A stretch of 41,215 nt of DNA from NCBI GenBank assembly GCA_002785215.1, contig PFMK01000045.1:1-41215 (forward strand), read 5' to 3'. Below are positions 1,351 through 33,480 of the stretch, in pieces. A program made the translations under genes and the position numbers. Every line of letters starts with the position of its first letter. Position 1 is the stretch's first letter. The notes under the pieces were generated by a model, which saw only the letters and a list, made by a program, of their open reading frames with translations, was not told the origin of the DNA and ran no database searches. Origin of the DNA: Candidatus Gottesmanbacteria bacterium CG_4_10_14_0_8_um_filter_37_24. Lineage in GTDB: Bacteria; Patescibacteriota; Microgenomatia; 2-02-FULL-39-11.

Positions 1351-1905
1351 ATGCGCGAAGACAGACAGGACGAGAAAAAAATCATAAAAGGGATATTAGG
1401 TAAAGACGATATCTGCTTAAGGCAGTTTTACCGTAAATACTATCCTTCTTTGATGACTTATATCAATAATAAAATAGATAATCAAAACGATGTTGAGGAA
1501 ATTCTGCAGGATACACTACTGGCTACAATTGAAGCTTTGAGAGATTTTGCCCATAAATGTTCACTTTTTACCTTTATCTGCAGTATAGCCAATCACAAAG
1601 TGATAGATCATTATCGCAAGAAAAAAATAAAAAGCATATTATTTTCAAAAATTCCAGAGATAGAACCGCTTCTGTCGACTCTTTTGAACCCTGATAGCAT
1701 TCTGGATGACGAACTTCTCAAACAAAAAATCAAAGAAACTTTCGATAAATTGGCACCAAAACATAGGACGATATTGAAATTAAAATACATCTATGGTTAT
1801 ACAGTTGCAGAAATTGCCGGTGAGCTGTCAACGACTTTCAAAAGTGTAGAAAGCCAGCTTTTCAGAGCCAGAAAGGCTTTTACCATAATTTATTTATATG
1901 AGTAA
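1351..1905 (+). CDS. RNA polymerase sigma factor, ECF (sigma-70 group 4) family
   Basis: 184 aa. Region 2-like segment: EEILQDTLLATIEALRDF...HKVIDHYRKKK. Region 4 HTH: HRTILKLKYIYGYTVAEIAGELSTTFKSVESQLFRARKAF. Confidence 0.8.
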   Translation: MREDRQDEKKIIKGILGKDDICLRQFYRKYYPSLMTYINNKIDNQNDVEEILQDTLLATIEALRDFAHKCSLFTFICSIANHKVIDHYRKKKIKSILFSKIPEIEPLLSTLLNPDSILDDELLKQKIKETFDKLAPKHRTILKLKYIYGYTVAEIAGELSTTFKSVESQLFRARKAFTIIYLYE

Positions 1906-2131
1906 AGGAGAAGTTTATAAACTTTTGGTATCGAAAATGAATGAGGTAGCAGTGGTTCCACCTCAGGAAATTGGTTTTTTCACTCCCATATATAAGAAAA
2001 TCGTACCTCAGTTAAAATTTTACCCTTGGAAAGTAACCTTAATTATTTCCTCCCTCATTGCTTTTTTGTTATATATGATTTTTGGTGCCACGTTGGTGAA
2101 GTTGGCTTCACTTCTCCAATACGGATTTTGA
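1898..2131 (+). CDS. small single-TM protein, putative anti-sigma factor
   Basis: 77 aa. It overlaps the sigma gene by 8 nt and has one C-terminal TM helix (LIISSLIAFLLYMIFGATLV). The assignment rests on position only. Confidence 0.35.
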   Translation: MSKGEVYKLLVSKMNEVAVVPPQEIGFFTPIYKKIVPQLKFYPWKVTLIISSLIAFLLYMIFGATLVKLASLLQYGF

Positions 2132-2173: not shown

Positions 2174-2815
2174 ATGAGAGATTTCATGATATTCCATAGT
2201 CTTAGGTTGTGGCGGCTTCTGATGTCTTTTGTAAAAAATACCTATGGTTGCATAAATAAACCTTATATTACCTGTCGGAAATTAGCAGACGATAAGGCTG
2301 ATATCCGGCAGACGGTCTTTATATTTCTTCTGGTGTTGGGTTATTTTATTCTTGCCAGTCTGCTTAGAACCGGCATAAGGAATCCTTACCTTCTGACGCT
2401 TAAATTCAGCAGTTTGTTTTGGACGGCAGTTATAGGATTTGCATTTATGGTTGTTGTTCTTTATGTTTTGGGCAAAATCGTAGGGAGCAAAAGCTCTTAT
2501 AAATCCCTTGTTATCCTTTGGGCATATTCTTTGCTGCCTACGCTTACCTGGTTTGCCGTTACCTCCATCTTCTATATTATTTTCCCCCCGCCCCGAACCG
2601 CCAGTTTTTTAGGGAAGCTATATACATTAATATATATAGCTTTTTCTATCTCGATTTTGACCTGGAAACTGATTCTGTATTATCTTACTTTACGGTTTGG
2701 TTTGAAACTGGATTTGATAAAGATTACGGCCGTATCCCTGATAGTTTTGCCGCTTATAATTTTCTATGCTGTAATTACATATAAAATAGGTATTTTCCGG
2801 ATACCTTTTATCTGA
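2174..2815 (+). CDS. polytopic membrane protein (unknown function; possibly Yip1-like)
   Basis: 213-aa ORF with about 5 hydrophobic helices. The start is uncertain because there are several N-terminal Met codons. Confidence 0.5.
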   Translation: MRDFMIFHSLRLWRLLMSFVKNTYGCINKPYITCRKLADDKADIRQTVFIFLLVLGYFILASLLRTGIRNPYLLTLKFSSLFWTAVIGFAFMVVVLYVLGKIVGSKSSYKSLVILWAYSLLPTLTWFAVTSIFYIIFPPPRTASFLGKLYTLIYIAFSISILTWKLILYYLTLRFGLKLDLIKITAVSLIVLPLIIFYAVITYKIGIFRIPFI

Positions 2816-2826
2816 AAGGAGAGAAA

Positions 2827-3978
2827 ATGAGCTTAAGAAATATAAAAAATATTACAGACAGGCGCAATTTCATAAAAAAAGAAAAAAGGATTGTTTTTAA
2901 AGCAATTACTTGCTATCCGAAAGAGATGGAACAGGCACAAACCAAAAATTGTGAGAATATGATAGGTGCAATTCAGGTGCCCGTAGGAGTGGCCGGTCCT
3001 TTATTGATAAAAGGAAACAGTGCAAAAGGAAAATATTTTATTCCTCTGTCAACTACGGAAGGAGCCTTGGTTGCTTCTGTAAACCGTGGGTGCAAGGCAA
3101 TTACCAACTCCGGTGGCGTTGTGGTGAAAAATGAGTATGTAGGTATGACGAGAGGGAGTGTCTTTGCAGTTTCAGATCTGTCACAAGGTTTCGAATTCAA
3201 AAAGTGGTTAGAAAGTTACCCGGCAGATTTTTCCGAAATTTGTCAGACTACTTCACGTCATCTGAAAATATTGAAAATAGACAGTAAGGTCGTGGGGAGA
3301 AATGTTTTTGTCAGATTTTACTTTGATACCCTGGACGCGATGGGCATGAATATGGTTACACTGGCCGTGCAAAAAATTATTGGTTTTATTGAAAAACATA
3401 CTGATACCAAATGCATCTCCATAGCCGGGAATTATGACGTGGATAAGAAGCCTTCCTGGCAGAATTTTATTTTAGGAAGAGGCAGGCAAGTATGGGCTGA
3501 AGCCGTAATTTCTGATAAGGAGATGAAAGATACATTAAAAACCACTCCTGATAAAATCCACAAGGTGTGTCTTAATAAATGCATGCTGGGATCGATACTT
3601 AGCGGTTCCATGGGTTTTAATGCCCATTTTGCCAATATCATAGCCGCCGTTTTTCTTGCCTGTGGACAGGATATGGCGCATGTAGTTGAAGGAAGTTTAG
3701 GTATTACCTCGACTGAAATTATTGATAAGAAGCTATATATATCTATTTACCTTCCTGATTTACCGGTTGGTACTGTGGGTGGAGGGACTTATTTGCCTTC
3801 CCAAAAAGAGATGCTTCAGCTTCTGGGAATATTCGGAGGAAAGGGTGGGGAAAATGCAACCGCTTTTGCTGAGATTATTGGTGCATGCGTACTGGCAGGT
3901 GAGTTATCGCTTCTTTCCTCACTGGCGGAAGGAAGTCTTGCAAGGGCTCATATGAGTTTAGCTAGAGGAGGCAGTTGA
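2827..3978 (+). CDS. hmgA: HMG-CoA reductase, class I (short, catalytic domain only)
   Basis: 383 aa with motifs TTEGALVAS, DAMGMNMV and GTVGGGT. AGGAG lies upstream of the ATG. Confidence 0.85.
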   Translation: MSLRNIKNITDRRNFIKKEKRIVFKAITCYPKEMEQAQTKNCENMIGAIQVPVGVAGPLLIKGNSAKGKYFIPLSTTEGALVASVNRGCKAITNSGGVVVKNEYVGMTRGSVFAVSDLSQGFEFKKWLESYPADFSEICQTTSRHLKILKIDSKVVGRNVFVRFYFDTLDAMGMNMVTLAVQKIIGFIEKHTDTKCISIAGNYDVDKKPSWQNFILGRGRQVWAEAVISDKEMKDTLKTTPDKIHKVCLNKCMLGSILSGSMGFNAHFANIIAAVFLACGQDMAHVVEGSLGITSTEIIDKKLYISIYLPDLPVGTVGGGTYLPSQKEMLQLLGIFGGKGGENATAFAEIIGACVLAGELSLLSSLAEGSLARAHMSLARGGS

Positions 3979-3985
3979 AAAGCTT

Positions 3986-5026
3986 ATGCAGGCAGGCATT
4001 TTAGGTTATGGAATATATATTCCCAAATATCGGATAAATATTTCCGATATTGCTCTTGCATGGAATAAAAACTCCCAAGATTTAGCCAGCTCGTTGAGAA
4101 TAAAAGAAAAATCAGTTGCTTCTGCCGATGAGGATACAGTCACCCTGGCTTATGAGGCGTCTTCACTTGCTTTGAAACATGCGGGAATGAAACCTTCTTT
4201 GATAGAATCATGTTTGATTGGTTCGGAAAGCCATCCTTATGCCGTAAATCCTACTTCAACTATTGTGGCGGAATTTTTAGATGTTGGCAGGAATTATGTT
4301 GCTGTTGATTTAGAATTTGCTTGTAAGGCAGCCACAACAGGTCTTATTTTGACTCTTGGACTAATAGAATCAGGAAGAATTAAAAATGGTTTGGTGGTTG
4401 GAGCTGACGTGGCACAGGCAAAACCTCATGATATTTTAGAGTATACAGCTGCTTCAGCTTCCGCAGCATATATATTGGGAAGTGATGAAAAAGAAGTAAT
4501 CGCCAAGATATTGGCAACATCCTCGTTTACTTCCGATACACCGGATTTTTGGCGGCGGGACGGGGTTAAATTTCCTACTCATGGAGGCAGATTTACCGGT
4601 GAACCATCATACTTTACCCATGTGGAGGGTGCCGCCAGAATGCTATTTCAAAAAACAAAATTATCTCCTGATGATTTCGATTACTGTGTTTTTCACATGC
4701 CTAATGGTAAGTTCCCTCGTGAGGTAGCCAAAAGGCTTGGTTTTACAGATAAGCAGCAGCAGCATTCTTTGGTGGTTGACCACATAGGGAATCCTTATTC
4801 CGCGTCGTCTTTAATCGGTCTTGCCGCTACTCTTGATACAGCCAGACCCGGAGAGCGGATTTTTATGGTTTCTTATGGATCCGGAGCAGGTTCAGACGGA
4901 TTTGTCATACAAGTTGAAAAAGCGATTCTTAAAAAAAGAGATAGGCAGACATTTTTCAAAGATTATCTAAAAAATACTAAATATATAACCTATACCGACT
5001 ATTTGAAATCTGGAGGGAAAATTTAA
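3986..5026 (+). CDS. HMG-CoA synthase, archaeal-type (about 350 aa)
   Basis: 346 aa with a thiolase-like condensing-enzyme fold (EFACKAAT active-site Cys context, FHMPNGKF, SYGSGAGSD). It directly precedes the thiolase and DUF35 genes, as in the archaeal three-protein complex. Confidence 0.8.
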   Translation: MQAGILGYGIYIPKYRINISDIALAWNKNSQDLASSLRIKEKSVASADEDTVTLAYEASSLALKHAGMKPSLIESCLIGSESHPYAVNPTSTIVAEFLDVGRNYVAVDLEFACKAATTGLILTLGLIESGRIKNGLVVGADVAQAKPHDILEYTAASASAAYILGSDEKEVIAKILATSSFTSDTPDFWRRDGVKFPTHGGRFTGEPSYFTHVEGAARMLFQKTKLSPDDFDYCVFHMPNGKFPREVAKRLGFTDKQQQHSLVVDHIGNPYSASSLIGLAATLDTARPGERIFMVSYGSGAGSDGFVIQVEKAILKKRDRQTFFKDYLKNTKYITYTDYLKSGGKI

Positions 5027-5029
5027 CCT

Positions 5030-6187
5030 ATGCAAATTACAGTTCTGGCAGGATTAAATAGTAAATTTGGGGAACTCTGGGATATTTCGCCCCGGGATCT
5101 TGTGAAAGAAGTTTTTCATGGTACGCTTAAAAATTCCAATATGAATAAAAATGACATAGACGTGGTCTTTGTAGGTAATATGCTGGCAGGTACCCTTGGA
5201 GGTCAAAATCACCTGGGCGCATTTTTTGCTGAAGAGCTAGGATTAGAGAGACCGGCAATCAGAGTAGAAGGTGCATGTTGTTCCGGTGGACTGGCAGTCC
5301 ACTCAGCAGTTTTAGGGATATCTTCCGGTATATATCAAACCGCTTTAGTAATCGGAGTAGAAAAAATGACGGATCATAAACCGGAAAAAGTAGCAGAAGC
5401 TCTTATGGGGGCAGGGTCGGACTTAGAAAGGGATGCAGGGGCCAGTTTTCCGGCACTATATGCTTTAATTGCCAGAGCACACATGGAAAAATATGGGACT
5501 TCAGAGGAAGAGATGGCTGCCGTAGCTGTTAAGAACCATTATCATGCTTCATTAAATTCTCATGCTCAGTTTAGAAATCCTATTTCCATCGAAAAAGTAT
5601 TAAAAAGCCCAATGATAGCTTCTCCTTTAAAGCTTCTTGACTGTTCACCAATTTCCGACGGAGCGTCTGCACTGATATTGAGTTCAAAAAGTAAAGCCTT
5701 AAGTCTTAAAAAAGATGATCCCGGTGTAAATATTGTTTCTTCAGTTGTTGCCACTGATACATTAGGCCTTTCAGAAAGAAAAGATCTTACCACTTTAAAC
5801 GCAGTTGTAACTGCTTCATGTAAAGCATACAAGATGGCAAATATTGATCCCGGGGATATAGATGTGGCGGAAGTGCATGATTGTTTTACCATAGCGGAGA
5901 TAATTGCCATGGAAGATTTAGGATTTTTTCCAAGAGGTCAAGCCGGAAAAGCAATTCTTGAAGGTAAAACCAGACTGGGTGGTCGGCCCGTTGTCAACAC
6001 TTCAGGCGGACTTAAGGCAGCCGGACATCCTGTGGGGGCTACAGGTGTGAAGCAAATAGTAGAGATATATCAGCAACTTATGGGAGTATCCGGAAAAAAA
6101 CAAGTAAAAAATGCAAAAATTGGTTTAACTCACAATGTTGGCGGTAGCGGTGCCACAGCAGTTATTCACATTTTAAAACGCGGATAA
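5030..6187 (+). CDS. acetyl-CoA acetyltransferase (thiolase), archaeal-type
   Basis: 385 aa with VEGACCSGG (nucleophilic Cys), EVHDCF and NVGGSGAT motifs. A GGAGGG SD lies upstream. Confidence 0.8.
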   Translation: MQITVLAGLNSKFGELWDISPRDLVKEVFHGTLKNSNMNKNDIDVVFVGNMLAGTLGGQNHLGAFFAEELGLERPAIRVEGACCSGGLAVHSAVLGISSGIYQTALVIGVEKMTDHKPEKVAEALMGAGSDLERDAGASFPALYALIARAHMEKYGTSEEEMAAVAVKNHYHASLNSHAQFRNPISIEKVLKSPMIASPLKLLDCSPISDGASALILSSKSKALSLKKDDPGVNIVSSVVATDTLGLSERKDLTTLNAVVTASCKAYKMANIDPGDIDVAEVHDCFTIAEIIAMEDLGFFPRGQAGKAILEGKTRLGGRPVVNTSGGLKAAGHPVGATGVKQIVEIYQQLMGVSGKKQVKNAKIGLTHNVGGSGATAVIHILKRG

Positions 6188-6195
6188 TATATTCT

Positions 6196-6498
6196 ATGAC
6201 TATATCACCTGTCAAAATCTGGCGGAATCAAAAGAAAGTACGCGCGTTTTTAGGTAAAACCGGTCGAATCATTACCTGGACAAAAGTGCATGTTCCGCCT
6301 TGCAGTTTCACTTCTCAAGCGCCTTATGTGATCATAGTAGTAGAGATTGATAAAAACCTTAGATTTACCGCGCAATTAGTTGACTGGGAAGAGACAAACC
6401 TGAAAACCGGACAAACAGTTAAAGCAATATTAAGAAAAACCAGGGATCCTGGTCTGGAAGGTGTTATTCCTTACGGAATTAAATTTAAGCCGATATAA
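6196..6498 (+). CDS. DUF35-type OB-fold protein (scaffold of the thiolase/HMGCS complex), no zinc ribbon
   Basis: 100 aa with a beta-rich OB-like sequence (GRIITWTKVHV...YVIIVVEIDKNLRFTAQLVD...GQTVKAIL). Position matches the archaeal trio. No CxxC pairs are present. Confidence 0.6.
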   Translation: MTISPVKIWRNQKKVRAFLGKTGRIITWTKVHVPPCSFTSQAPYVIIVVEIDKNLRFTAQLVDWEETNLKTGQTVKAILRKTRDPGLEGVIPYGIKFKPI

Positions 6499-6502
6499 TA
6501 GC

Positions 6503-7450
6503 ATGAAAGTTACAGTTTCCGCCCCAGGTAAAATTCACCTTCTCGGAGAACATGTAGTAGTATACGGTTACCCGGCGCTTCTTTCCTCCATAGATAAACG
6601 GTTATATGTTACTGTTGAAACTTCCTTGAAAGGTAGGTTAGGACATATCAGCATCATTTCACCGGAAGACAACAAATTAGTTCATTCTGCAGTTGAAATT
6701 TACAAAAAAAAATATCCTGCAGTTGATTTTCCTTCCCTCAAGATAAATATTTCTTCTCAAATTCCCGTCGGAGCAGGACTAGGATCTTCAGCAGCATTAT
6801 CTGCAGCAATTATCGGCGCCCTGATGAAAGCAGTAAATAACATTTGGAACCCCGTGCGGATAAACGAATTATCTTACGAGGTGGAAAAATTGGCACACGG
6901 TAATCCGTCAGGAGCAGATAATACAACCGTTGTTTTCGGGGAGTTGGTTTGGTATCGTAGAGAATTTGATTTTTTGAAATCTATTTGGACTCTACCTGTC
7001 TTATCGTATAAAATTCCCAAATTTGCAATTTTGAATTCCGGCCGTCCGGCAGAATCCACAAAAGAGATGGTGAACTTGGTGAAAGGAAATTATACGAAAA
7101 AAAGAAGACTTTTTGAGAATATTTTTTCCGATCAGGAAAAACAGGTAAAAAAAATATTATTGGGTATGAAAGAAGGAAATATTAACTTCCTAAAACAGGC
7201 AATAGAAAAAGGGGAACGCAATCTGGAAAAAATAGGAGTAGTAGGGGAAAGAGCAATTAAGATCATTAAATATATACATAAATTGGGGGGCGTGGCAAAA
7301 ATATGTGGTGCCGGCGGGGTGAAGGAAGGAAGTGGAATCATCCTTTGTTACCATGAAAATTTGTCAAAACTTAAGTTGGTAGAAGATGTATATAACGTGC
7401 ACTTGTCAAATATCAGTCTAGCTTCAGAAGGAATAAGAATCGAACATTAG
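6503..7450 (+). CDS. mvk: mevalonate kinase (GHMP kinase)
   Basis: I prefer the start MKVTVSAPGKIHLLGEHVVVYG (ATG 6503) over the longer ORF start at 6461. GHMP motif PVGAGLGSSAALSAA and C-terminal KICGAGG are present. Confidence 0.8.
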   Translation: MKVTVSAPGKIHLLGEHVVVYGYPALLSSIDKRLYVTVETSLKGRLGHISIISPEDNKLVHSAVEIYKKKYPAVDFPSLKINISSQIPVGAGLGSSAALSAAIIGALMKAVNNIWNPVRINELSYEVEKLAHGNPSGADNTTVVFGELVWYRREFDFLKSIWTLPVLSYKIPKFAILNSGRPAESTKEMVNLVKGNYTKKRRLFENIFSDQEKQVKKILLGMKEGNINFLKQAIEKGERNLEKIGVVGERAIKIIKYIHKLGGVAKICGAGGVKEGSGIILCYHENLSKLKLVEDVYNVHLSNISLASEGIRIEH

Positions 7451-7465
7451 AAAAATAAATATCGT

Positions 7466-8203
7466 ATGGAAATCTACTTGATAATATTCAGTTTCATTTT
7501 TTCCGTTGTTTGTTTGTTTTTTATAAAAAAGTTCATTTTTTTTGAAATGACAGCCTTATTATCCATGTTTCTCCATGGTTTATATATTTTCGGTAATAAA
7601 ATAATATTGGTTTTTATTATTACTTACATTGTCAGTACTATTTTCGAGTTGTTAAGTTTAAAGACGTCTTTTAATATTTTCGGGGTAAGATACAAGTATA
7701 ATTTAAACAACAAAATATTTTCCTCAAAGATCAATTTAATGGGGGTATATCCGCTTGAAGTGACATTTGCATGGGTAATTTTTAAATATCTTTCACTATT
7801 CTTAGCAATCACTATCGGAGATTATTTAAGTCTTTCAAAAATTACAGAAATAATATTACTGTCTCTTATTATGGTGTCCATAGATCTGATAATAGATCCG
7901 GTATCCGTAAAAAGAAAAATGTGGAGTTGGCAGACAGGTTCCAGGTATTTCGGAATTCCGCTAAAGAATTTTTTCGGCTGGTTTCTGGTTAGTATTATCG
8001 TGTCATTTATTTCAATTGCTTTGTTAGATTTGAAAATATTGAATAATAACTTGTTAGTGAATACTCTCCCGATTTTTTCCTGTTTGCTTCTGTTTATGAA
8101 TGTGAAACTAATGTATTCACTGAATAAACATTTAGCACTAATAGGATGCGTTCCATTCGTATTGTGGATAATATTAAGCGCTTTAGCAATTTATCATAAC
8201 TGA
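7466..8203 (+). CDS. multi-TM membrane protein embedded in the mevalonate operon (possibly carotenoid-biosynthesis-protein/DUF422-like)
   Basis: 245 aa with about 7 hydrophobic helices. It starts 15 nt after mvk, and only 1 nt separates it from the next GHMP kinase. The DLIIDPVSVKRKMWSW segment recalls the DUF422 family from memory only. Confidence 0.45.
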   Translation: MEIYLIIFSFIFSVVCLFFIKKFIFFEMTALLSMFLHGLYIFGNKIILVFIITYIVSTIFELLSLKTSFNIFGVRYKYNLNNKIFSSKINLMGVYPLEVTFAWVIFKYLSLFLAITIGDYLSLSKITEIILLSLIMVSIDLIIDPVSVKRKMWSWQTGSRYFGIPLKNFFGWFLVSIIVSFISIALLDLKILNNNLLVNTLPIFSCLLLFMNVKLMYSLNKHLALIGCVPFVLWIILSALAIYHN

Positions 8204-8204
8204 T

Positions 8205-9098
8205 ATGTCTGTAAAAATTTCTGTTCCGGGAAAATTGATGATACTTGGTGAACATGCAGTGGTTTACGGTTATTCCTGTATTGTTTCGTCTGTTAATAAA
8301 TATCTATGTGTAGAAGCGGAAAAAATAGATTCAGGAAAAGATATATTTATTACACCTGAGGTTAAAGATAATCGTTTTGTAAAACATGCAGTAGGTTTTT
8401 TTAAGAATAAATTTAATATTGGTGATAAGGTAAAATTATCTACTAAAAGCAATCTGGGGAATTTCGGGTTGGGTTCCTCAGCGGCAGTAACAGTAGGGAC
8501 AATAAAGACTCTTTCGTCATTGTTTGGGATAGAAATATCTGAGCATCAATTGTTTGATATTTGTTTAAAAATTGTATTGAACGTGCAAAAAAAAGCATCA
8601 GGTTTTGATATTGCCTCGAGTATTCATAGGCACACGATATATTTTAGCGGTAAGACAAAAGAGGCAGATATAATATTTAAAGAAAATATTCCTATGGTGG
8701 TAGGGTTTTCAGGAGAAAAAGCATCAACCAACCAACTAGTTGAGAACGTTACACTTTTTAAAAGAGAATGTTCAAGTAAAGTAAACAAAATATTTATAGA
8801 TATCGGCCAAATAGTGGAAGCCGGAAAATGTGTCATCCAAAACAATGATTGGGAAGAGCTGGGTAGACTGATGAACAATAATCATAGCTTAATAAAACTA
8901 TTGGGCGTGAGTACCCAAAATTTGGACGTGATGGTTAACGCAGCTTGCAAGGCCGGGGCTTATGGAGCTAAACTGTCAGGAGCAGGCGGGGGGGATTGTA
9001 TGATTGCCTGTGTTCCGATTGAGAAGAAAGACAGGGTAGAAAAGGCTATCGAAAAGGTTGGGGGTCAAATCTTGAAGCTTAAAGTAGGCAGTAGATAA
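8205..9098 (+). CDS. GHMP kinase, phosphomevalonate-kinase-like
   Basis: 297 aa with VPGKLMILGEHAVVYG, GLGSSAAVTVG and KLSGAGGGDCMIA. The last motif resembles PMK more than MVK. It sits between mvk and the decarboxylase. Confidence 0.55.
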   Translation: MSVKISVPGKLMILGEHAVVYGYSCIVSSVNKYLCVEAEKIDSGKDIFITPEVKDNRFVKHAVGFFKNKFNIGDKVKLSTKSNLGNFGLGSSAAVTVGTIKTLSSLFGIEISEHQLFDICLKIVLNVQKKASGFDIASSIHRHTIYFSGKTKEADIIFKENIPMVVGFSGEKASTNQLVENVTLFKRECSSKVNKIFIDIGQIVEAGKCVIQNNDWEELGRLMNNNHSLIKLLGVSTQNLDVMVNAACKAGAYGAKLSGAGGGDCMIACVPIEKKDRVEKAIEKVGGQILKLKVGSR

Positions 9099-9133
9099 AC
9101 AAAAGAGGATAATGAAAGTATTATGTAATATAT

Positions 9134-10114
9134 ATGATTAAATCAACATCTATAGCACCGTCAAATATTGCCTTTATCAAATATTGGGGTAAAAAGGATT
9201 CTTCATTGAAACTTCCATTAAACGGCAGTGTGTCGATGAATTTATCAGGAATGACTACAACCACTACCGTGGAATTTAAAAAAGATTTTACGGAAGATGA
9301 GATATTGATTGAAAATGATGACAGAAAGAAGACAAAAGATAGAGTCAGTGGTCATTTAGATAAAATAAGGCAAATTACTGAAGTGGACATGAAGGCAAAA
9401 GTAGTTTCGCGAAATAATTTTCCTTCTTCTACAGGACTGTCATCATCGTCTTCAGCTTTTGCTGCTTTGACACTTGCAGCGGTAAACGCATTGAATCTTC
9501 ATCTGTCGGAAAAAGATCTGTCAATCCTCGCAAGGCAGGGTTCAGGTTCAGCATGCAGATCCATACCTGATGGTTTTGTTGAATGGTTGGAGGGAGAAGA
9601 CAGTAATTCTTCCTACTCTTATTCACTCCATCCCCCTGAGTATTTTGACATAGCAGATGTGGTTATTGTGGTAAGTGACAAGAAAAAAGACATAAGTTCT
9701 ACAGAAGGACAAATTTTAGCTGATACAAGTCCATTTATGGCAACTAGACTCGCGAATATTAAAGATAAAATAATAAAGATCAAACAAATTATCAATAAAA
9801 AGGATTTTTCATCATTTGGGCAGCTTATCGAATCGGAAGCGTTAGAAATGCATGCAATCATGTTGACGTCAAATCCTCCCCTTATATACTGGCAGCCGGG
9901 AACAATAAACATAATCAAACTCGTGAAGAAAATGAGGACTGAGGGTTTGGAAGTTTATTTTTCGTTAAATACAGGTCAGGATGTTCACATTATTTGTAAA
10001 AGAAAGGACGTTAATAAACTAGAGGGTTATTTTAGAAAAATAGAAGAAGTAAAAAGAATTATAGTAAATTATCCAAGCGTTGGTGCAAGATTATCAGACA
10101 ATCACTTATTTTAA
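9134..10114 (+). CDS. mvaD: diphosphomevalonate decarboxylase
   Basis: 326 aa with APSNIAFIKYWGKKD, GLSSSSSAFAAL and QGSGSACRS motifs. Confidence 0.8.
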   Translation: MIKSTSIAPSNIAFIKYWGKKDSSLKLPLNGSVSMNLSGMTTTTTVEFKKDFTEDEILIENDDRKKTKDRVSGHLDKIRQITEVDMKAKVVSRNNFPSSTGLSSSSSAFAALTLAAVNALNLHLSEKDLSILARQGSGSACRSIPDGFVEWLEGEDSNSSYSYSLHPPEYFDIADVVIVVSDKKKDISSTEGQILADTSPFMATRLANIKDKIIKIKQIINKKDFSSFGQLIESEALEMHAIMLTSNPPLIYWQPGTINIIKLVKKMRTEGLEVYFSLNTGQDVHIICKRKDVNKLEGYFRKIEEVKRIIVNYPSVGARLSDNHLF

Positions 10115-10118
10115 TCTT

Positions 10119-10826
10119 ATGAAACAAGATTTATTTTTACCTAAACACGTAGCCATAATCATGGATGGAAACAGAAGATGGGCAAGAAAAAACAGACTTC
10201 CTTCTTTTGAGGGGCACCGCAGGGGAGAAGAAAAAATTGAACCAATTATTGATATGGCAATTGAAATGGGAATCCCTTTTCTCACTTTCTGGGCTTTTTC
10301 CACAGAAAATTGGAAAAGATCAAAAGAAGAAGTAAGCTTCCTTTTGAATCTATATAGAAATGTATTAGATAAAAAGATTGATAAGTATCATAAGAAGAAT
10401 GTCAGGATAAACGTAATCGGAAACATATCGATGTTTCCTGGTGATATCCAGGAGAAAACTCAAAAGTGGATGGAGAAAACAAAAAATAATAAGATAATTA
10501 CAGTAAATATTGCCTTAAGTTACGGAGGAAGGGATGAAATAATACGGGGGGTTAATAATATGCTTCAGAGATTAACCACCCAAAAAGAAAAAATTGGAAA
10601 AATTACTGCAGACGCACTTAAGAATTATTTGGATACTAAAGGTCAACCAGATCCGGATCTTTTAATAAGAACAGGCGGAGAAAAAAGACTTTCAGGTTTT
10701 CTTCTTTGGCAGCTTGAATACGCGGAGTTATATTTTACAGATGTAAATTGGCCGGATTTTTATCCTTCTGAATTTAAGAAAGCTATTGAAGAGTATCAAC
10801 TTCGACAAAGAAGATTTGGTAAATAA
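10119..10826 (+). CDS. uppS: di-trans,poly-cis-undecaprenyl-diphosphate synthase
   Basis: I prefer the start MKQDLFLPKHVAIIMDGNRRWA (ATG 10119), 4 nt after the decarboxylase stop. Motifs: FAFSTENWKR-like (WAFSTENWKRS), IRTGGEKRLSGFLLWQ..YAELYF. Confidence 0.85.
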   Translation: MKQDLFLPKHVAIIMDGNRRWARKNRLPSFEGHRRGEEKIEPIIDMAIEMGIPFLTFWAFSTENWKRSKEEVSFLLNLYRNVLDKKIDKYHKKNVRINVIGNISMFPGDIQEKTQKWMEKTKNNKIITVNIALSYGGRDEIIRGVNNMLQRLTTQKEKIGKITADALKNYLDTKGQPDPDLLIRTGGEKRLSGFLLWQLEYAELYFTDVNWPDFYPSEFKKAIEEYQLRQRRFGK

Positions 10827-10966
10827 AAGTTTGAATTTGACAAGTGAGCTTGATATGTTGAAACAACTTAAATGTGTTTCAGTATAAATCCTTATGGACG
10901 GATTTAGCCTCATTTTTCTTCCCAAAAAGTTGCAAAATGCAGTAAAAAGGGTATAGAATTGTTTTG

Positions 10967-11806
10967 ATGGATAGGAAAAGACTGACAATCACGCTAAATA
11001 AAACCCTTCTTAAAAAAGTGGATGACGTGATAGATGGTACGAAGATTAGGAACAAATCTCATGCGATAGAATACCTGATTACCCAAAGTATATCCCCCCA
11101 AGTGACCCAGGCAGTAGTACTTGCCGGAGGTAAGGGTCTAAATATGCGGCCTTACACTTTTGAAATGCCAAAAGCTCTTTTTCCTGTAGGTGGTAAACCA
11201 ATACTGGAATATATAGTGGAAATGTTGAGAAGATATGAAATAAGAAATATCATCTTTTCAATTGGGCATTTAGGAGATAAAATCAGGGATCATTTCGGAG
11301 ACGGAGAAAAATTCGGTGTAGACATAACTTACGTTTCAGAAGAAAAAGAGGCGGGTACGGGAGGAGCTTTAGTTTTGGCAAAAAAACATATAAAAAATGA
11401 AACTTTTCTGGTGATACACGGAGATATCCTGATAAATTTAAATATTTCTGATTTCATTACTTTTCATAAAGAACAGGGCTTACCAGCTACAATCGCCCTG
11501 ACCTCGGTAGTGGATCCTTCCAGTTTCGGTGAAGTAGCTCTTCACGGAACAAGAATAACCAGATTTATTGAAAAACCAAAAAAAGGCAAACAACTTTCTC
11601 AACTGATAAATTGCGGATTATATGCTTTAGAAAAAAATATTTTAAGTTTTCTGCCGGCTGACGGATATTCTCTTCTGGAAGATATTTTCCCGAAGCTGGC
11701 CAGTATGAAACAACTGGCGGGTTTTAACTTTGAAGGCCAGTGGATAGACATAGGTACGCCTGCGTCATACGAAAAGGCCATTAAGGAATGGAAAGTAAAA
11801 AAGTAA
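10967..11806 (+). CDS. ribbon-helix-helix domain fused to a sugar-1-phosphate nucleotidyltransferase
   Basis: The N-terminal ~45 aa (RLTITLNKTLLKKVDDVIDGTKIRNKSHAIEYLI) look CopG/RHH-like. They are followed by LAGGKGLNMRPYTFEMPKALFPVGGKP (NTP-transferase G-loop). An ATG at 10967 sits just inside the TTG of the ORF track. Confidence 0.7.
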   Translation: MDRKRLTITLNKTLLKKVDDVIDGTKIRNKSHAIEYLITQSISPQVTQAVVLAGGKGLNMRPYTFEMPKALFPVGGKPILEYIVEMLRRYEIRNIIFSIGHLGDKIRDHFGDGEKFGVDITYVSEEKEAGTGGALVLAKKHIKNETFLVIHGDILINLNISDFITFHKEQGLPATIALTSVVDPSSFGEVALHGTRITRFIEKPKKGKQLSQLINCGLYALEKNILSFLPADGYSLLEDIFPKLASMKQLAGFNFEGQWIDIGTPASYEKAIKEWKVKK

Positions 11807-26255: not shown

Positions 26256-27527
26256 ATGAAACGGTATTTTTTTATTTTAGGAAGAAATCCTGATCTGTCT
26301 GTTCTTGAATTAATCTCCGTCTTTGATAATCGCACAATTCCTTATAAAATCTGCTTAGTATCTCGTGAAGCCGGTATATTTGAATTAGGAGAGAAAAATC
26401 AAATATCTGAGCTAATTAAAATATTCGGAGGTACAGTAAAAATTGGGGAAATCATGGACGAAATTGGATTTTCAGATGATTATTCTGAATTCGAGAAAAT
26501 ATTATCTGCTTCCAACTTAATAAAAAAATATTTACCATCGATAGAAGGTAAAGCGCATTTTGGTATAAGTATTTATGACGTGGGGGGAGATAATCTATAT
26601 TTATCAAAAATTACTTCTCAACTGAAAACTCTTAACATTCAGATTAAGGATAACTTGAGAGAAAAAGGAATTCATGCAGGTTTTGTAAAAATAAAAAATA
26701 GATTTCTTTCCAGCGTGTCTGTCGAAAAAAATCAATTGATAAACAAAGGTATGGAGTTGGTGATACTAGTCAGCAAAGAAAAATTATTATTTGGCAAATC
26801 ACTTCGCGTCCAGGAATTTTCCGATTTTAGTTTAAGAGATGTTGGCAGGCCTTATCGAGATAAAAAATCAGGAATTATACCTCCGAAACTGGCAAGGATG
26901 ATGATAAACATTGCTCAAGTAGATAGAGGTGATATCCTTCTTGATCCATTCTGCGGAAGCGGAACTTTGTTGCAGGAAGCAGTAGTATTAGGATATAAGC
27001 ACATAATAGGATCGGATATCAGCGCGAAAGCCATAGCAGACACAAAGAACAATCTTAATTGGTTGTTTGGTCAATTCCAGGAATTGAAAAGAGAAATATA
27101 TGATATGAATCTTATTCAGGCAGATGTAAGTAATTTATATTCATCCATTAAGGAGGCAAGAATCGGGGCAATAATTACAGAGCCTTATCTGGGACCACCG
27201 CTTTCTCATAAACCTGGCATAAATGAAGTAAAAGAGACAATATCAAACCTAAGCCGATTGTATTTAAAGGCATTTACTCAATTTTCCAAAATATTAGATC
27301 CCGACGGACGCGTCGTGATTATATTCCCATGTTTTGAAATCTCCGGTAATTTATTTTTTTTAGATATATTACAGGATATTCGTAATTTGGGTTTTGAAAC
27401 TCATCATTATAAGATCGATAACAGTTGGAGTAGTTACCTGAAATTTACCAAACGAGGATCAATAATTTATAGTAGCGAGATTAAGTTTTTCCAACGGGAA
27501 ATTCTTTCTTTTGTTAAGATAAAATGA
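26256..27527 (+). CDS. SAM-dependent RNA methyltransferase (UPF0020 / Trm11-RlmL-like)
   Basis: 423 aa with motif I LLDPFCGSGTLLQEA and motif IV-like ITEPYLGPP. Confidence 0.6.
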   Translation: MKRYFFILGRNPDLSVLELISVFDNRTIPYKICLVSREAGIFELGEKNQISELIKIFGGTVKIGEIMDEIGFSDDYSEFEKILSASNLIKKYLPSIEGKAHFGISIYDVGGDNLYLSKITSQLKTLNIQIKDNLREKGIHAGFVKIKNRFLSSVSVEKNQLINKGMELVILVSKEKLLFGKSLRVQEFSDFSLRDVGRPYRDKKSGIIPPKLARMMINIAQVDRGDILLDPFCGSGTLLQEAVVLGYKHIIGSDISAKAIADTKNNLNWLFGQFQELKREIYDMNLIQADVSNLYSSIKEARIGAIITEPYLGPPLSHKPGINEVKETISNLSRLYLKAFTQFSKILDPDGRVVIIFPCFEISGNLFFLDILQDIRNLGFETHHYKIDNSWSSYLKFTKRGSIIYSSEIKFFQREILSFVKIK

Positions 27528-27554
27528 TATGCTTGACAATTATTATTCAATATT

Positions 27555-27677
27555 ATGAATAATCTAAGTACTTATATAAAATTAATTATTGTTTTATCGG
27601 TCAGTCTTGGTTTATTTTTGTTATATATAATTTATCAAGTCATATTTACGCCAAATGGGTTATTAGGTATTCATTAG
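27555..27677 (+). CDS. possible 40-aa single-TM micro-protein
   Basis: ATG...TAG reads MNNLSTYIKLIIVLSVSLGLFLLYIIYQVIFTPNGLLGIH in the otherwise empty 183-nt gap. It is below the ORF-track cutoff and has no other support. Confidence 0.2.
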   Translation: MNNLSTYIKLIIVLSVSLGLFLLYIIYQVIFTPNGLLGIH

Positions 27678-27710
27678 AAAAAAAGATTATCAAAAATATA
27701 TAAAACATTT

Positions 27711-28160
27711 ATGATAAAAGACGCAATTCAAAAAGCAGTTAATGAGAATTTGAAGAAGGGGAACGTTGTAGCAGTGAAGGTTTTAAGATTCGTCATGTCA
27801 GAGATAAAATATGCAGAAATTGCTAAAAAGAAAGAAATCACAGACGAGGAAGTAATTTCCTTATTAAGGAAAGAGACGAAAAAGAGAAAAGAAGCTGTAG
27901 ATTTGTTTAAGAAAGCCGGCAGAAATGATCTGGTGGATGATGAGTCAAAACAATTGGAGATTATCGGAAATTATTTGCCAGAGGAGATGTCCGACGGAGA
28001 ACTTGAAAGTATTATTGACGAGGTATTGTTAGTGAGTTCTAACAGGTCAAACATTGGAAGACTAATTGGAATGGTAATGTCAAAACTCAAAGGTAGAATA
28101 GAAGGGTCAAAAGTCGCTGACATAGTAAAAAAGAAAATATCCACGTCCCCATCTGTTTAA
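27711..28160 (+). CDS. GatB/YqeY domain protein
   Basis: 149 aa, N-terminal IKDAIQKAVNENLKKGN..VKVLRFVMSEIKYAEI. Typical YqeY length and layout. Confidence 0.7.
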   Translation: MIKDAIQKAVNENLKKGNVVAVKVLRFVMSEIKYAEIAKKKEITDEEVISLLRKETKKRKEAVDLFKKAGRNDLVDDESKQLEIIGNYLPEEMSDGELESIIDEVLLVSSNRSNIGRLIGMVMSKLKGRIEGSKVADIVKKKISTSPSV

Positions 28161-28221
28161 AAATTAATAATTTCCTATTTATCTTCTTTTTATACGATTT
28201 CGTACATTGTAGTAATTATGT

Positions 28222-28632
28222 TTATTTGACGAACAATCGTTTACAGATTAGGTATTGCAATGAAGTAATAATTATACCTAAGATTAAAGCAATCAAATAT
28301 GACGATATACCCAATCCTGTTAAAACCGCACCTTTAGATACAAACCAAATACTTAGAATATTGGTTATCAAGCCCGTAAGGATCCATGAGCTATTTTTTG
28401 ACGTATTTATATTAAGATATTTTGCCAGTCGTAACACCAAGTAGTATATAGTTGAGATAAGGAAACTATTTAATAATACAGCTGTCCAGTCGGTAAGGTT
28501 TGCATTGCCTAAAACTATAAACGAAGGTACGAGTAAATAAGCAATATAAAGTGTAATTAAATTTACTAAAAAAAATGATATCCAGAAATAAACATTGGTG
28601 ATGTTTTTATTTTTTCTCAAAGCCTTCTTCAC
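28222..28632 (-). CDS. four-TM membrane protein, unknown function
   Basis: 136-aa ORF with four hydrophobic helices. Confidence 0.5.
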   Translation of the reverse strand: MKKALRKNKNITNVYFWISFFLVNLITLYIAYLLVPSFIVLGNANLTDWTAVLLNSFLISTIYYLVLRLAKYLNINTSKNSSWILTGLITNILSIWFVSKGAVLTGLGISSYLIALILGIIITSLQYLICKRLFVK

Positions 28633-28722
28633 CTCCTCCTTATATTAATTTAATTTAAGGCATATCAATTATGAGTCTAAACGACTTTAGATTATTTTTC
28701 AATGTTTATAGATTTTTGAATA

Positions 28723-29436
28723 TTGCAGAAAATCATAGAGTATAGTATATTAAATAATCTTATGGTCAGGAAAAGCAAAATAACCAGTTCTGTTAAAGAA
28801 GCTAAATACAGAGAAAATTTAAAAGAAAATAACATTTCCTCAACGAAAGGTTTTCCACTTTCTTCATTTTTAACTGTCAAAAATATTATTTTAGTTCTTT
28901 TGCTTGTTGTTATAGTGTTATTATGGAAATTTAAAGGTAATTTTATAGCCGCAACAGTAAATGGACAGCCTATATCCAAATGGCAGTTAAACAGTGAGTT
29001 GGAAAAGAAATTCGGTGGTCAGGTCTTAGATGCAATTATTAATGAAAGACTTATTCTAGGCGCAACCAGACAGAAAGGTATTTTTGTAACCTCACCGGAA
29101 ATAGATAAAAAAATTGAGGAAATAGAAAAGCAATTAAACGGAAAAGTATCCCTAGACGATGCACTAAAATCTCAAGGCATGACTAAAGATGACTTTAGAA
29201 AACAATTAGAAATACAGATATCCATTAATAAGATGTTTGATAAAGACGCCAGCATTTCCAGCAAAGAAATAGATGATTATCTTGAGAGCAACAGCTCTTT
29301 ATCCAAAGACGCGACGGATCCGGCAGCTTTACGCAGTGAAGTAACTGATATACTTAAACAACAGAAAGTTTCAGATTTATTCAATGAATGGTTTGCCAAA
29401 ATCCGTAACGACGCTAAAATAACAAAGTTCCTTTAA
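28723..29436 (+). CDS. membrane-anchored SurA-N/PrsA-like chaperone domain protein
   Basis: TM helix IILVLLLVVIVLLW, then ATVNGQPISKWQLNSELEKKFGGQVLDAIINERLI (SurA N-terminal-type). The start may be the internal Met at 28762. Confidence 0.6.
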   Translation: MQKIIEYSILNNLMVRKSKITSSVKEAKYRENLKENNISSTKGFPLSSFLTVKNIILVLLLVVIVLLWKFKGNFIAATVNGQPISKWQLNSELEKKFGGQVLDAIINERLILGATRQKGIFVTSPEIDKKIEEIEKQLNGKVSLDDALKSQGMTKDDFRKQLEIQISINKMFDKDASISSKEIDDYLESNSSLSKDATDPAALRSEVTDILKQQKVSDLFNEWFAKIRNDAKITKFL

Positions 29437-29446
29437 ATTATCCCAT

Positions 29447-30133
29447 ATGACGATGACGGAACAGGTAAAGCCCCATCTTAAAGACTTCATAGTGTATATT
29501 ATTATTCTTTTTGGGGTAATTATTGGTACGGTATTATTATTTTCTCAAAAAACACAAGATAATCTTGTAAAAGATACGATGAAAAGAGATGTTACTGATT
29601 CTTCAAATATTCCAACCGGAAGTTATACGTCACCACCTAAAATGGAGATAGATATAAACAGGAAGTATACAGCCGATATTATTACCAGTTTAGGTGAAAT
29701 ACAAATTGAGTTATTCTCCAAAGAAACACCTGTGACCGTGAATAACTTTATTTTCCTCTCAAAACAAGGATTTTATGATAATACTATTTTCCACAGGATC
29801 ATCAAAGATTTCATGATCCAGGGTGGAGATCCAAAAGGAGACGGAACGGGAGGTCCGGGTTATCGCTTTGCTGATGAAAAAATCACCAGAGATTATAAAA
29901 GGGGAATAATAGCCATGGCAAACAGCGGACCTAATACAAACGGCAGTCAATTTTTTATAATGCATAAAGATACAGATCTGCCAAAAAATTATGTAATATT
30001 CGGACAAGTAGTAAAAGGTATAGAAGTTATTGATAAAATTGCGGAGACGCAGACAGTCGATAATGGTCTTGGAGAGCAGTCAAAGCCCACAAAAGAAATA
30101 AAAATTGAGAAGATTACAATCAAAGAAACATAA
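29447..30133 (+). CDS. peptidyl-prolyl cis-trans isomerase, cyclophilin type, N-terminally anchored
   Basis: 228 aa with FHRIIKDFMIQGGDP, MANSGPNTNGSQFFI and an N-terminal TM helix. Confidence 0.85.
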   Translation: MTMTEQVKPHLKDFIVYIIILFGVIIGTVLLFSQKTQDNLVKDTMKRDVTDSSNIPTGSYTSPPKMEIDINRKYTADIITSLGEIQIELFSKETPVTVNNFIFLSKQGFYDNTIFHRIIKDFMIQGGDPKGDGTGGPGYRFADEKITRDYKRGIIAMANSGPNTNGSQFFIMHKDTDLPKNYVIFGQVVKGIEVIDKIAETQTVDNGLGEQSKPTKEIKIEKITIKET

Positions 30134-33038: not shown

Positions 33039-33198
33039 AGCCTGTTGCTTGTCACAGCAATCTAAAGATGCAACCCGCAGCAAAAGCTGAATCGGGGACT
33101 TTAGGCGTAAAATAGCAAGAAACAGGCTCATAAAGACTTAAGTTTTCTCAAATATTAACAGTTTCACTTCTGCTTTTATAATCATTCATGTCAAAGTG
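33039..33198 (-). promoter_or_regulatory. CRISPR leader (AT-rich promoter-like part plus GC-rich long hairpin)
   Basis: 160 nt between the cas2 stop and the first transcribed repeat. An extended -10-like TGTTAATAT lies on the minus strand at 33152..33160. An imperfect palindrome spans 33039..33129. Confidence 0.55.
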
Positions 33199-33480
33199 CT
33201 ACCCGAAGTATACCACATTTTCGATATCATGATGAGCGCTACCGTAGCGGATGGTTTTTCCTCTACATCCTTCACACACGGGAAAAATTACTATGCTGTC
33301 AGTTTTTGTAAATAATTTTTTATACTTTGCTTCTATCTCCGTGAGAATATTTCTAAGTACCCTTGGGCTATTATGTACGGAAAAGACTGAATATTGCATC
33401 CTGCGGCCGTATTTCTTCAGGAATTTGGCAAATTTACTTCTGGTTTTATTATTAGTGAAATCGTAAGAAACTATCAACAT
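33199..33480 (-). CDS. cas2: CRISPR-associated endoribonuclease Cas2
   Basis: 93 aa, MLIVSYDFTNNKTRSKFAKFLKKYGRRMQYSVFSV (the ferredoxin-like Cas2 N-terminus). Positioned 4 nt after cas1. Confidence 0.9.
   Translation of the reverse strand: MLIVSYDFTNNKTRSKFAKFLKKYGRRMQYSVFSVHNSPRVLRNILTEIEAKYKKLFTKTDSIVIFPVCEGCRGKTIRYGSAHHDIENVVYFG

Follow-up and report, generated by a model that had tools for sequence, protein, structure and literature searches.

The enzyme expected to complete isopentenyl diphosphate (IPP) synthesis in a conserved bacterial mevalonate operon has a remodelled catalytic centre, in which Ser103, Asn279 and Thr280 (S-N-T) replace the Ala-Asp-Ala (A-D-A) triad of its canonical relatives, and this remodelling extends across a clade of Candidate Phyla Radiation (CPR) bacteria. 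The operon lies on contig PFMK01000045.1, the whole of which (41,215 nt) was analysed and is referred to here as the window, and consists, in order, of genes for HMG-CoA reductase (HMGR), HMG-CoA synthase (HMGCS), a thiolase, a DUF35 protein, a first GHMP kinase (GHMP_A), a PF04240 membrane protein, a second GHMP kinase (GHMP_B), a diphosphomevalonate decarboxylase (MDD)-family enzyme and undecaprenyl-diphosphate synthase (UppS). Families were assigned by profile searches with Pfam and curated equivalog models with cut-offs (Table 1), and five CPR loci were compared: the window, a relative (L007), a Gottesmanbacteria locus (L022) and loci from two other Patescibacteria genomes (L023 and L024). 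From its gene content and synteny, the locus is predicted to be a conserved mevalonate/cis-prenyltransferase supra-operon of Microgenomates-type CPR bacteria and is a good example of a known, published feature. This headline is not new, because the hybrid CPR gene set, including its synteny with a cis-prenyltransferase gene, was published in 2018 (PMC6107057), and the operon alone, as one more example of that pattern, does not change the view of CPR biology or of mevalonate evolution. The main value of the locus lies in the terminal enzyme and in the question of route that it raises, which is testable with three small soluble proteins. Our working view, which we regard as probable though far from settled, is that the operon still makes IPP for undecaprenyl diphosphate by a classical-type route running through GHMP_B, GHMP_A, the S-N-T enzyme and UppS. 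Debates over the pathway present in the last bacterial or universal common ancestor have drawn on CPR mevalonate genes and have assumed a classical route through mevalonate kinase (MK), phosphomevalonate kinase (PMK) and MDD, so that evolutionary scenarios would need revisiting if the route differs, and an Asp-independent decarboxylase or a new kinase specificity, if true, would be of interest to enzymologists and pathway engineers.

The MDD-family enzyme is 45.5% identical to the phosphomevalonate decarboxylase (PMD) of A. thermophila (6N0X) and 35.3% identical to S. epidermidis MDD. In it, the six positions that Dellas et al. list as phosphate-binding are Y17, K20, K26, S137, S139 and S189 (Y-K-K-S-S-S), which is the MDD pattern. 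Assignment as a PMD failed, with 192 bits on NF040704 against a cut-off of 475 and with Lys20 and Gln193 at positions where 6N0X has Asn and His. The original prediction of a diphosphomevalonate decarboxylase stood as regards the TIGR01240 match and the signature and fell short at the catalytic Asp, the position of which is occupied by Asn279. This residue corresponds to D283 of the S. epidermidis enzyme, D282 of E. faecalis, D281 of S. solfataricus, D280 of A. thermophila PMD and D309 of MBD, and the local motif reads SLNTGQD as against T[LM]DAGPN in canonical enzymes. The PDB entries 6N0X, 6N0Y and 6N0Z are named ‘diphosphomevalonate decarboxylase’ though the protein is the A. thermophila phosphomevalonate decarboxylase, and a reading of two of the deposited sequences shows that 6N0Z is 6N0X with N20K and H194M; annotation transferred by name from these entries would be misleading.

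The substitution is a property of a whole clade. When 1.84 billion cluster representatives were searched exhaustively and the best 150 examined, the Asp proved to be kept except in one coherent ‘NTG’ group that includes the clade of the window, and the NTG motif was carried by 119 of the 120 closest homologs. Asn279 is present in four other CPR orthologs, and the protein is identical in the independent assemblies L001 and L003; on these grounds, together with the conservation of the residue throughout the clade, a sequencing error or pseudogene was rejected. When 128 ‘NTG’ sequences were aligned with 137 canonical ones, 61 positions were conserved in both sets and 58 of these were identical, among them the P-loop, Arg134/142, Lys185 and His240, so that the sets differed at only three: A103S in motif II, D279N and A280T. 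These three residues change as a unit, 131 sequences having A-D-A, 127 having S-N-T and none a mixture of the two. Position 20 is Lys or Arg in 124/128 clade members. P0239, a close relative that has the canonical triad (A-D-A), is 66–70% identical to S-N-T sequences and sits in the same module of GHMP_A, GHMP_B and decarboxylase genes; the triad has thus switched without a change of operon context, which argues that the role in the pathway was kept. Four longer homologs, P0264 (646 aa), P0266 (630 aa), P0301 (608 aa) and P0404 (619 aa), have the decarboxylase domain in their C-terminal half and retain the canonical Asp; they are probably fusions, possibly with a GHMP kinase as the partner domain. 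No report of the S103-N279-T280 feature was found in the searchable literature, which is not proof that it is unpublished.

What is known of the catalytic Asp comes from characterized homologs, in which it orients the 3'-OH, lies near the metal site and may stabilize a carbocation; SsoDMD D281T/V only phosphorylates, yielding a 3-phospho intermediate, and PtoMBD D309N is inactive (PMC9254496, PMC7414129). A simple explanation in which the Asp has migrated to a nearby position was weakened by the finding that the candidate at +4, D283, is Asn in 14/128 clade members.

Both GHMP kinases behave as members of the MK family, because they score 158 and 188 bits on the MK model, as against at most 51 bits for PMK references. 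This comparison rests on a calibration of the hidden Markov models (HMMs) with reference sequences that each passed the cut-off of their own family, in which the MK model gave genuine PMKs no more than 51 bits and the Gram-positive PMK model gave genuine archaeal MKs 66–97 bits. Of the PMK models used (TIGR01220, TIGR01219 and NF040957), TIGR01219 listed neither kinase, and the other scores were 45 and 60 bits for GHMP_A and 98 and 59 bits for GHMP_B, against cut-offs of 166 and 500. The label ‘PMK-like’ that the second kinase had first received was consequently dropped, no PMK model being reached by either protein. GHMP_B matches the M. mazei MK 6MDE with 129 bits (BLASTP 138 bits, 32.5% identity) and clusters in the tree with the M. 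jannaschii MK and other archaeal MKs. In the same analysis GHMP_A falls into a distinct CPR clade with a long branch next to the MKs, and its AlphaFold2 model (pLDDT 92.7) is nearest to MK structures, with TM-scores of 0.85–0.89, PMKs ranking lower. It has more than 2000 homologs, the named ones being from Patescibacteria and annotated ‘mevalonate kinase’, and is distinguished by a family-specific insertion in motif III (GAGGxKxGSG) and by the extra invariant residues Arg33 and Arg152. The MK active-site residues (Lys9, His16, Ser135 and Asp138 of M. mazei) are present in GHMP_A and GHMP_B alike, and the NCBI pipeline annotates orthologs of both as ‘mevalonate kinase’. On the distinction between MK and PMK, HMM scores, tree, fold search and active-site motifs disagree. 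Our inference is that GHMP_B acts as MK; GHMP_A would then be the second kinase and, by elimination, a candidate phosphomevalonate kinase.

The upper part of the pathway is more readily assigned. HMGR scores 431 bits on the class I model TIGR00533, just missing the cut-off of 441.8, and 58 bits on the class II model TIGR00532; its best structural match is the archaeal 6HR7 (362 bits), its other PDB matches are human and plant class I enzymes only, and the motifs DAMGMNM and GTVGGGT are found at residues 170 and 315. The class I assignment originally proposed has therefore survived a comparison that could have pointed to class II. HMGCS is likewise of archaeal rather than MvaS type, as had been proposed, with 126 bits on the bacterial MvaS model TIGR01835 (cut-off 360). 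Its best solved homolog is 6ESQ chain I (367 bits), and its tetrad E81-C113-H237-N269 is intact, aligning to E82, C114, H238 and N270 of 6ESQ. The thiolase has 6ESQ chain A as its best solved homolog (328 bits), with the CxS (ACCSG), HDCF and GHP motifs aligned, and scores 455 bits on the M. thermolithotrophicus equivalog NF053570, under the cut-off of 600. The DUF35 protein aligns only to residues 48–128 of the 130-aa 6ESQ chain E, also its best solved homolog (54 bits). [quoted passage not shown] All five CPR orthologs (5/5) share this architecture, at 99–102 aa with 0–1 Cys and no CxxC. The archaeal thiolase/HMGCS/DUF35 trio described in the original prediction is thus upheld in that all three proteins match 6ESQ best with motifs intact, the exception being the ribbonless DUF35. 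As judged from these matches, the three proteins are homologous to the archaeal channelling complex, and HMG-CoA formation is the expected activity because the E-C-H-N tetrad and the CxS, HDCF and GHP motifs are all present. Only this upper part of the pathway is archaeal-type; the lower half consists of GHMP-family kinases and an MDD-family enzyme.

UppS carries the motifs DGNRRWA and RTGGE.RLSGFLLWQ (including RLSGFLLWQ). In the pathway that we propose, acetyl-CoA would be converted to HMG-CoA by the thiolase and HMGCS, possibly with DUF35, and then to mevalonate by the class I HMGR. GHMP_B would phosphorylate mevalonate to the 5-phosphate, GHMP_A, acting as PMK, would yield the 5-diphosphate, and the MDD-family enzyme would convert this to IPP despite Asn279, Thr280 and Ser103. 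IPP, together with dimethylallyl diphosphate or farnesyl diphosphate (FPP) formed by an isomerase and a trans-prenyl synthase whose genes would lie elsewhere on the genome, would be extended by UppS to C55-PP, which would serve as the lipid carrier for peptidoglycan and surface glycans. In this scheme the PF04240 protein is a later insertion in this lineage and not a core part of the pathway. Family memberships, motifs and synteny are observed for these genes; every substrate named for the lower pathway is a predicted one. Genes for IPP isomerase (IDI), isopentenyl-phosphate kinase (IPK), a trans-prenyl synthase or the methylerythritol phosphate pathway were not found in the 41-kb window, and the profile searches thereby confirmed the earlier statement that neither IDI nor IPK is visible in it. 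Nor did the window or the L022–L024 neighbourhoods contain the phosphomevalonate dehydratase, anhydromevalonate-phosphate decarboxylase and IPK of the Aeropyrum-type route; an MDD-family gene is present instead.

Several observations weigh against this classical-type route. In characterized homologs the Asp is needed for the dephosphorylation/decarboxylation half-reaction; compensation by D283 is possible, but the Asn found there in some clade members speaks against it, and the nearest solved structure is that of a phosphomevalonate decarboxylase. The curated PMK models are matched by neither kinase, both of which score far higher on the MK model; in addition, their Asp-motifs conflict with the tree, SGFDIA of GHMP_B being PMK-like and SGADN of GHMP_A human-MK-like. 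Neither IDI nor FPP synthase was found in the window. An alternative is that the lower pathway is a fifth variant of the mevalonate pathway. The S-N-T enzyme would then be solely a 3-kinase, as are Thermoplasma mevalonate 3-kinase (M3K) and the SsoDMD D281T mutant, or would have a different substrate, and one of the MK paralogs, most plausibly the divergent GHMP_A, would catalyse a step other than that of a PMK, such as the phosphorylation of isopentenyl phosphate or the promotion of phosphate elimination and decarboxylation. The near-universal replacement of an otherwise invariant Asp among close homologs, confined to one coherent group among the 150 representatives, and the strict coupling of the three residues, which indicates adaptive remodelling of the active site, agree with such a variant, as do the kinase-only behaviour of SsoDMD D281T/V, the nearest solved homolog being a PMD, the missing canonical PMK, the public annotation of both kinases as ‘mevalonate kinase’, and the motif III insertion and invariant Arg33 and Arg152 of GHMP_A; moreover, passages of Hoshino & Gaucher (PMC6107057) leave the route operating in CPR bacteria unclear. 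We nevertheless think this variant quite unlikely, since the operon has a single MDD-family gene and neither the window nor the 20-kb neighbourhoods of L022–L024 contain an IPK, P0239 combines the canonical triad with the same three-gene module, the diphosphate-binding signature with Lys/Arg20 is retained, and GHMP_A has the fold, and in its active site the Lys, His, Ser and Asp, of an ordinary small-molecule kinase. The more general proposition that the CPR lower pathway differs biochemically from the four characterized variants, through either a carboxylate-independent decarboxylase or a kinase-only enzyme with a recruited MK paralog, is one that we hold tentatively and consider unlikely. 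A possible arrangement, though one we would not favour, is that the roles of the kinases are reversed, as in the original prediction, GHMP_A (6503–7450) being the mevalonate kinase and GHMP_B (8205–9098) the phosphomevalonate kinase, with the rest unchanged. With references validated by HMM cut-offs, the sequence HGNPSGADNTTV of GHMP_A is close to HGNPSGVDNAVS of human MK and SGFDIASS of GHMP_B resembles SGFDVAAA of yeast PMK, the Gram-positive PMK model gives GHMP_B 98 bits and GHMP_A 45, and pipelines name GHMP_A orthologs ‘mevalonate kinase’. The 98 bits are not diagnostic, however, because bona fide archaeal MKs reach 66–97 on that model; GHMP_B is the nearer to characterized MKs by BLAST, HMM and tree, and its orthologs too are pipeline-named ‘mevalonate kinase’.

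Two further alternatives concern the upper pathway and the origin of the cluster. Recent transfer of the cluster from an archaeon into a bacterium might be suspected from the upper-pathway enzymes, which match archaeal structures best, and from the GC content, which over 2–7 kb is slightly raised at 0.39–0.41, most of the remaining window lying at 0.29–0.37. It is very improbable, because the whole block, together with its bacterial flanks (sigma factor, Yip1, UppS and nucleotidyltransferase genes), is syntenic across divergent CPR lineages at 43–73% identity, the families of homologs are large and their named members CPR-specific, the lower half of the pathway is not archaeal, and the CPR enzymes form clades of their own in the published trees as described in passages of PMC6107057. 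The archaeal-like origin put forward in the original prediction accordingly applies to the upper half, with the lower half excepted and recent transfer unlikely given the CPR synteny; whether ancient transfer or common ancestry is responsible is debated in the literature, in which CPR bacteria are now often placed as sister to Chloroflexota. Repurposing of the thiolase/HMGCS/DUF35 set as an acyltransferase of the PhlABC/MucABC type is documented in bacteria, where such derivatives of the complex have lost the E-C-H-N tetrad of HMGS and the HDxF motif of the thiolase (2026, PMC12960953), and PhlA and PhlC are among the weaker PDB matches of the window proteins. Here both features are intact, the scores against 6ESQ are about twice those against PhlA/PhlC, and the genes are embedded between those for HMGR and the mevalonate kinases; a PhlABC-like acyltransferase was rejected on the intact catalytic motifs and we regard it as extremely improbable.

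The nine open reading frames (ORFs) of the operon were all present on the plus strand between 2827 and 10826. With ATG starts, successive genes are separated by 7, 3, 8, 4, 15, 1, 35 and 4 nt, so that the description of nine co-directional, tightly spaced genes was borne out, with gaps of 1–35 nt and families confirmed by profiles. Two mechanically listed starts, GTG 6461 and TTG 10080, run into the preceding genes; on identical contigs from metagenomes, the starts set by independent gene callers are ATG 6503 and, in 5/6 of the places shown, ATG 10119. Scans for terminators gave 10 candidates against 8.0 in shuffled controls, which is not significantly above them, and scans for promoters gave 48 against 36.9, mildly above; the operon boundaries therefore rest on spacing and synteny.

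Table 1. Positions of the features of the window that are discussed in the text
Feature	Position	Strand	Remarks
ECF-type sigma-70 factor	1351..1905	+	Pfam Sigma70_r2/r4_2; directly upstream of the mevalonate block in 5/5 CPR loci
77-aa protein, hydrophobic C-terminal stretch	1898..2131	+	Overlaps stop of sigma gene
Yip1-domain multi-pass membrane protein	2174..2815	+	PF04893; 11-nt gap to HMGR
Class I (NADPH-type) HMG-CoA reductase, soluble catalytic domain only	2827..3978	+	PF00368, 399 bits
Archaeal-type HMG-CoA synthase, 346 aa	3986..5026	+	NF003274 485 bits (cut-off 244); TIGR00748 432 bits (cut-off 353)
Archaeal-type acetoacetyl-CoA thiolase	5030..6187	+	NF004720 488 bits (cut-off 420)
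DUF35 OB-fold protein, 100 aa	6196..6498	+	PF01796, 46 bits
GHMP_A, CPR-specific mevalonate-kinase-family paralog	6503..7450	+	TIGR00549 158.5 bits, just under cut-off 163
PF04240 (CruF/‘carotenoid biosynthesis protein’ family) membrane protein	7466..8203	+	81 bits (cut-off 25)
GHMP_B, predicted ortholog of archaeal-type mevalonate kinase	8205..9098	+	TIGR00549 188 bits (cut-off 163)
MDD-family GHMP enzyme, remodelled catalytic centre	9134..10114	+	TIGR01240 276 bits (cut-off 171)
AAT codon for Asn279	9968..9970	+	Position of catalytic Asp in MDD/PMD/MBD
Undecaprenyl-diphosphate synthase (cis-prenyltransferase)	10119..10826	+	PF01255 282 bits; TIGR00055 278 bits (cut-off 110)
Sugar-1-phosphate nucleotidyltransferase	10967..11806	+	PF00483, 148 bits; directly after UppS in all CPR loci
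Type IIG-like restriction-modification fusion, 915 aa	11937-14684	+	HSDR_N, Eco57I/MmeI methylase and TaqI_C specificity domains
Full-length serpin, 472 aa	17273-18691	-	PF00079, 377 bits; in a CPR bacterium
Type V-A CRISPR-Cas locus	array 32005-33058; 33199-33480, 33485-34438, 34422-34988, 35017-38985	-	Complete

The order of genes is shared by L007 and L022–L024, in each of which opposite-strand pilin genes are followed by those for the sigma factor, the 77-aa protein and Yip1, then HMGR, HMGCS, thiolase and a DUF35 of about 100 aa, and finally GHMP_A, GHMP_B, the MDD-family enzyme, UppS and the sugar-1-phosphate nucleotidyltransferase, with proteins 43–73% identical to their window counterparts. 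The link to a cis-prenyltransferase that had been noticed in the window is therefore real and conserved in all four. In L024 a gene for a trans-prenyl diphosphate synthase (PF00348; 12937–13968) lies between the decarboxylase and UppS genes; the window has no such gene. Passages of Hoshino & Gaucher (2018, PMC6107057) describe a CPR set of archaeal-type AACT and HMGS, HMGR-I, GHMP kinases and a DPMD homolog, syntenic with cis-IPPS and found mainly in Microgenomates, and both its gene content and its synteny with named Gottesmanbacteria and Patescibacteria genomes place the window in this published cluster; a mevalonate pathway in Peribacteria had been noted by Anantharaman et al. (2016, PMC4736985). 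Many metagenomes from aquifers and groundwater contain DNA identical to that of the window. There are thousands of homologs of the kinase and of the decarboxylase, those that are named being from Gottesman-, Roizman-, Levy- and Kaiserbacteria, Microgenomates or the ‘Patescibacteria group’. Homolog names and synteny, rather than markers, thus identify the predicted host as a CPR/Patescibacteria bacterium of Microgenomates type, and the earlier view that the host is bacterial is also corroborated by the ECF sigma-70 gene, the bacterial-type UppS, SurA-like and PPIase genes and CPR-type pilins. An assignment to Peregrinibacteria, suggested by the Cas12a gene, was rejected in favour of the Microgenomates-type lineage.

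The membrane protein encoded between the two kinases, previously described only as a multi-TM protein, could be identified as a member of PF04240 with eight long predicted helices (pLDDT of the model 92) and proved to be inserted in this lineage alone. It scores far below the CruF equivalogs, with 65 bits on TIGR03460 (cut-off 155), 34 on NF045693 (400) and 34 on NF041333 (300), and a search of the PDB with the model found no structural neighbour (best E = 2.3). The gene is regarded as a lineage-specific insertion because only the window and L007 carry it inside the mevalonate operon; it is missing from the operons of L022–L025 and has been retained through about 54% sequence divergence. A single profile scan of genome contigs, seeded with the PF04240 alignment, recovered 13 genomic loci (Patescibacteria, 40–51% identity) in which the homolog is not linked to mevalonate genes, and the same is true of two metagenome loci. 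A core role in the mevalonate pathway was rejected because of the absence from L022–L025 and the lack of linkage in the 13 genomic loci. That the protein may modify a polyprenyl chain or product is a plausible but unsupported idea. Homologs of CruF in Patescibacteria were noted earlier and read as bacterioruberin genes (PMC9948471). The close homologs of the window protein belong to Patescibacteria. Four third-party metagenome-assembled genomes (L012, L014, L018 and L019), titled ‘uncultured Gammaproteobacteria bacterium’, carry a Patescibacteria-type PF04240 gene at 40–51% identity, and their taxonomic labels look doubtful.

The genes flanking the operon are conserved in the same positions in L007 and L022–L024, where the extracytoplasmic function (ECF) sigma factor is 60–64%, Yip1 47–54% and the nucleotidyltransferase 68–73% identical to the window protein. 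The 77-aa gene is called in all related loci (55–58% identity); its product matched no Pfam family and is a putative anti-sigma factor. Promoter-like sites were found at 1237–1265 (11/12 matches), at 2128–2155 ahead of the Yip1 gene, which is probably the first gene of the transcription unit, and at 10930–10959 ahead of the nucleotidyltransferase gene. The latter gene is separated from UppS by 137 nt, counted to its first in-frame start, TTG 10964, with an ATG at 10967, and its product is likely to be a functional neighbour acting on envelope glycan precursors. Conservation of the sigma, 77-aa and Yip1 genes upstream hints at envelope-stress-type control of the operon, and an ECF sigma factor and small membrane protein upstream with a nucleotidyltransferase downstream would fit a unit for the supply of envelope precursors. 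Divergent from the sigma gene are three tandem small T4SS-pilin-like genes (PF18895; 93–1207, minus strand), an arrangement also seen in L007 and L022–L024. A second syntenic block at 26256–30133 (RMKL-like methyltransferase, YqeY, SurA-like protein and cyclophilin) corresponds to L024 16960–20160 at 47–62% identity, which suggests that the L024 genome is among the closer sequenced relatives.

Elsewhere the window encodes, besides the CPR-type T4SS-like pilins, SurA-like protein and cyclophilin, a thyA-folA pair, a serpin and a type V-A CRISPR-Cas locus. The last comprises Cas12a (1322 aa, with RuvC, REC1 and PI domains), Cas4, Cas1 and, at the position of Cas2, a 93-aa ORF, with an array of at least 17 repeats of 36 nt, the reverse complement of the repeat ending in TCTACTTTTGTAGAT. 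The type IIG-like gene adjoins the conserved block downstream and is split into two ORFs in the metagenome variants L003 and L005.

Compared with the cluster of Hoshino & Gaucher, the gene order of the window is identical to that of L022–L024, except that its lineage adds the PF04240 gene between the kinases. The searched passages of PMC6107057 contain no analysis of GHMP catalytic residues, and the Asp-to-Asn triad, the missing canonical PMK, the DUF35 without a zinc ribbon and the upstream sigma and Yip1 genes are apparently not among the features treated in those passages. With the operons of Gram-positive cocci (mvaK1-mvaD-mvaK2, mvaS and class II mvaA) the window shares bacterial GHMP kinases and an MDD-family enzyme in one operon; unlike them, it has a class I HMGR, an archaeal-type synthase, thiolase and DUF35 genes within the operon and UppS within the cluster, and its second kinase is not a TIGR01220-type PMK. 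The M. thermolithotrophicus complex (6ESQ/6ET9) provides the best solved homolog of all three of the thiolase, HMGCS and DUF35 proteins, with tetrad and thiolase motifs kept; the CPR DUF35, at about 100 aa and without a zinc ribbon, differs from the 6ESQ scaffold, and a complex of the window proteins is predicted from homology and adjacency. The carotenoid 1,2-hydratases of the CruF type from haloarchaea, Deinococcus and cyanobacteria are polytopic membrane proteins of the same Pfam family as the PF04240 protein, which differs from them in its scores far below the equivalog cut-offs, in having no carotenoid genes anywhere in the window and in CPR homologs that are otherwise not linked to mevalonate genes.

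For the terminal enzyme two sets of characterized proteins are instructive. Thermoplasma M3K and the SsoDMD D281T/V mutants are likewise MDD-family proteins without the catalytic Asp; these are kinase-only and stand beside a separate MBD and IPK, whereas no such partners are visible in the window, and the similarity of the window enzyme to M3K is negligible (22 bits). The MDDs of S. epidermidis (3QT5) and E. faecalis (5V2L) and the PMD 6N0X belong to the same fold family as the window enzyme, and the P-loop, Arg and Lys residues are kept. Gln193 of the window enzyme is Met in most sequences with the MDD signature and His in those with the PMD signature. In contrast to all three of these structures, the window enzyme has Asn279 in place of the Asp, Thr in place of the neighbouring Ala and Ser in place of the Ala of motif II.

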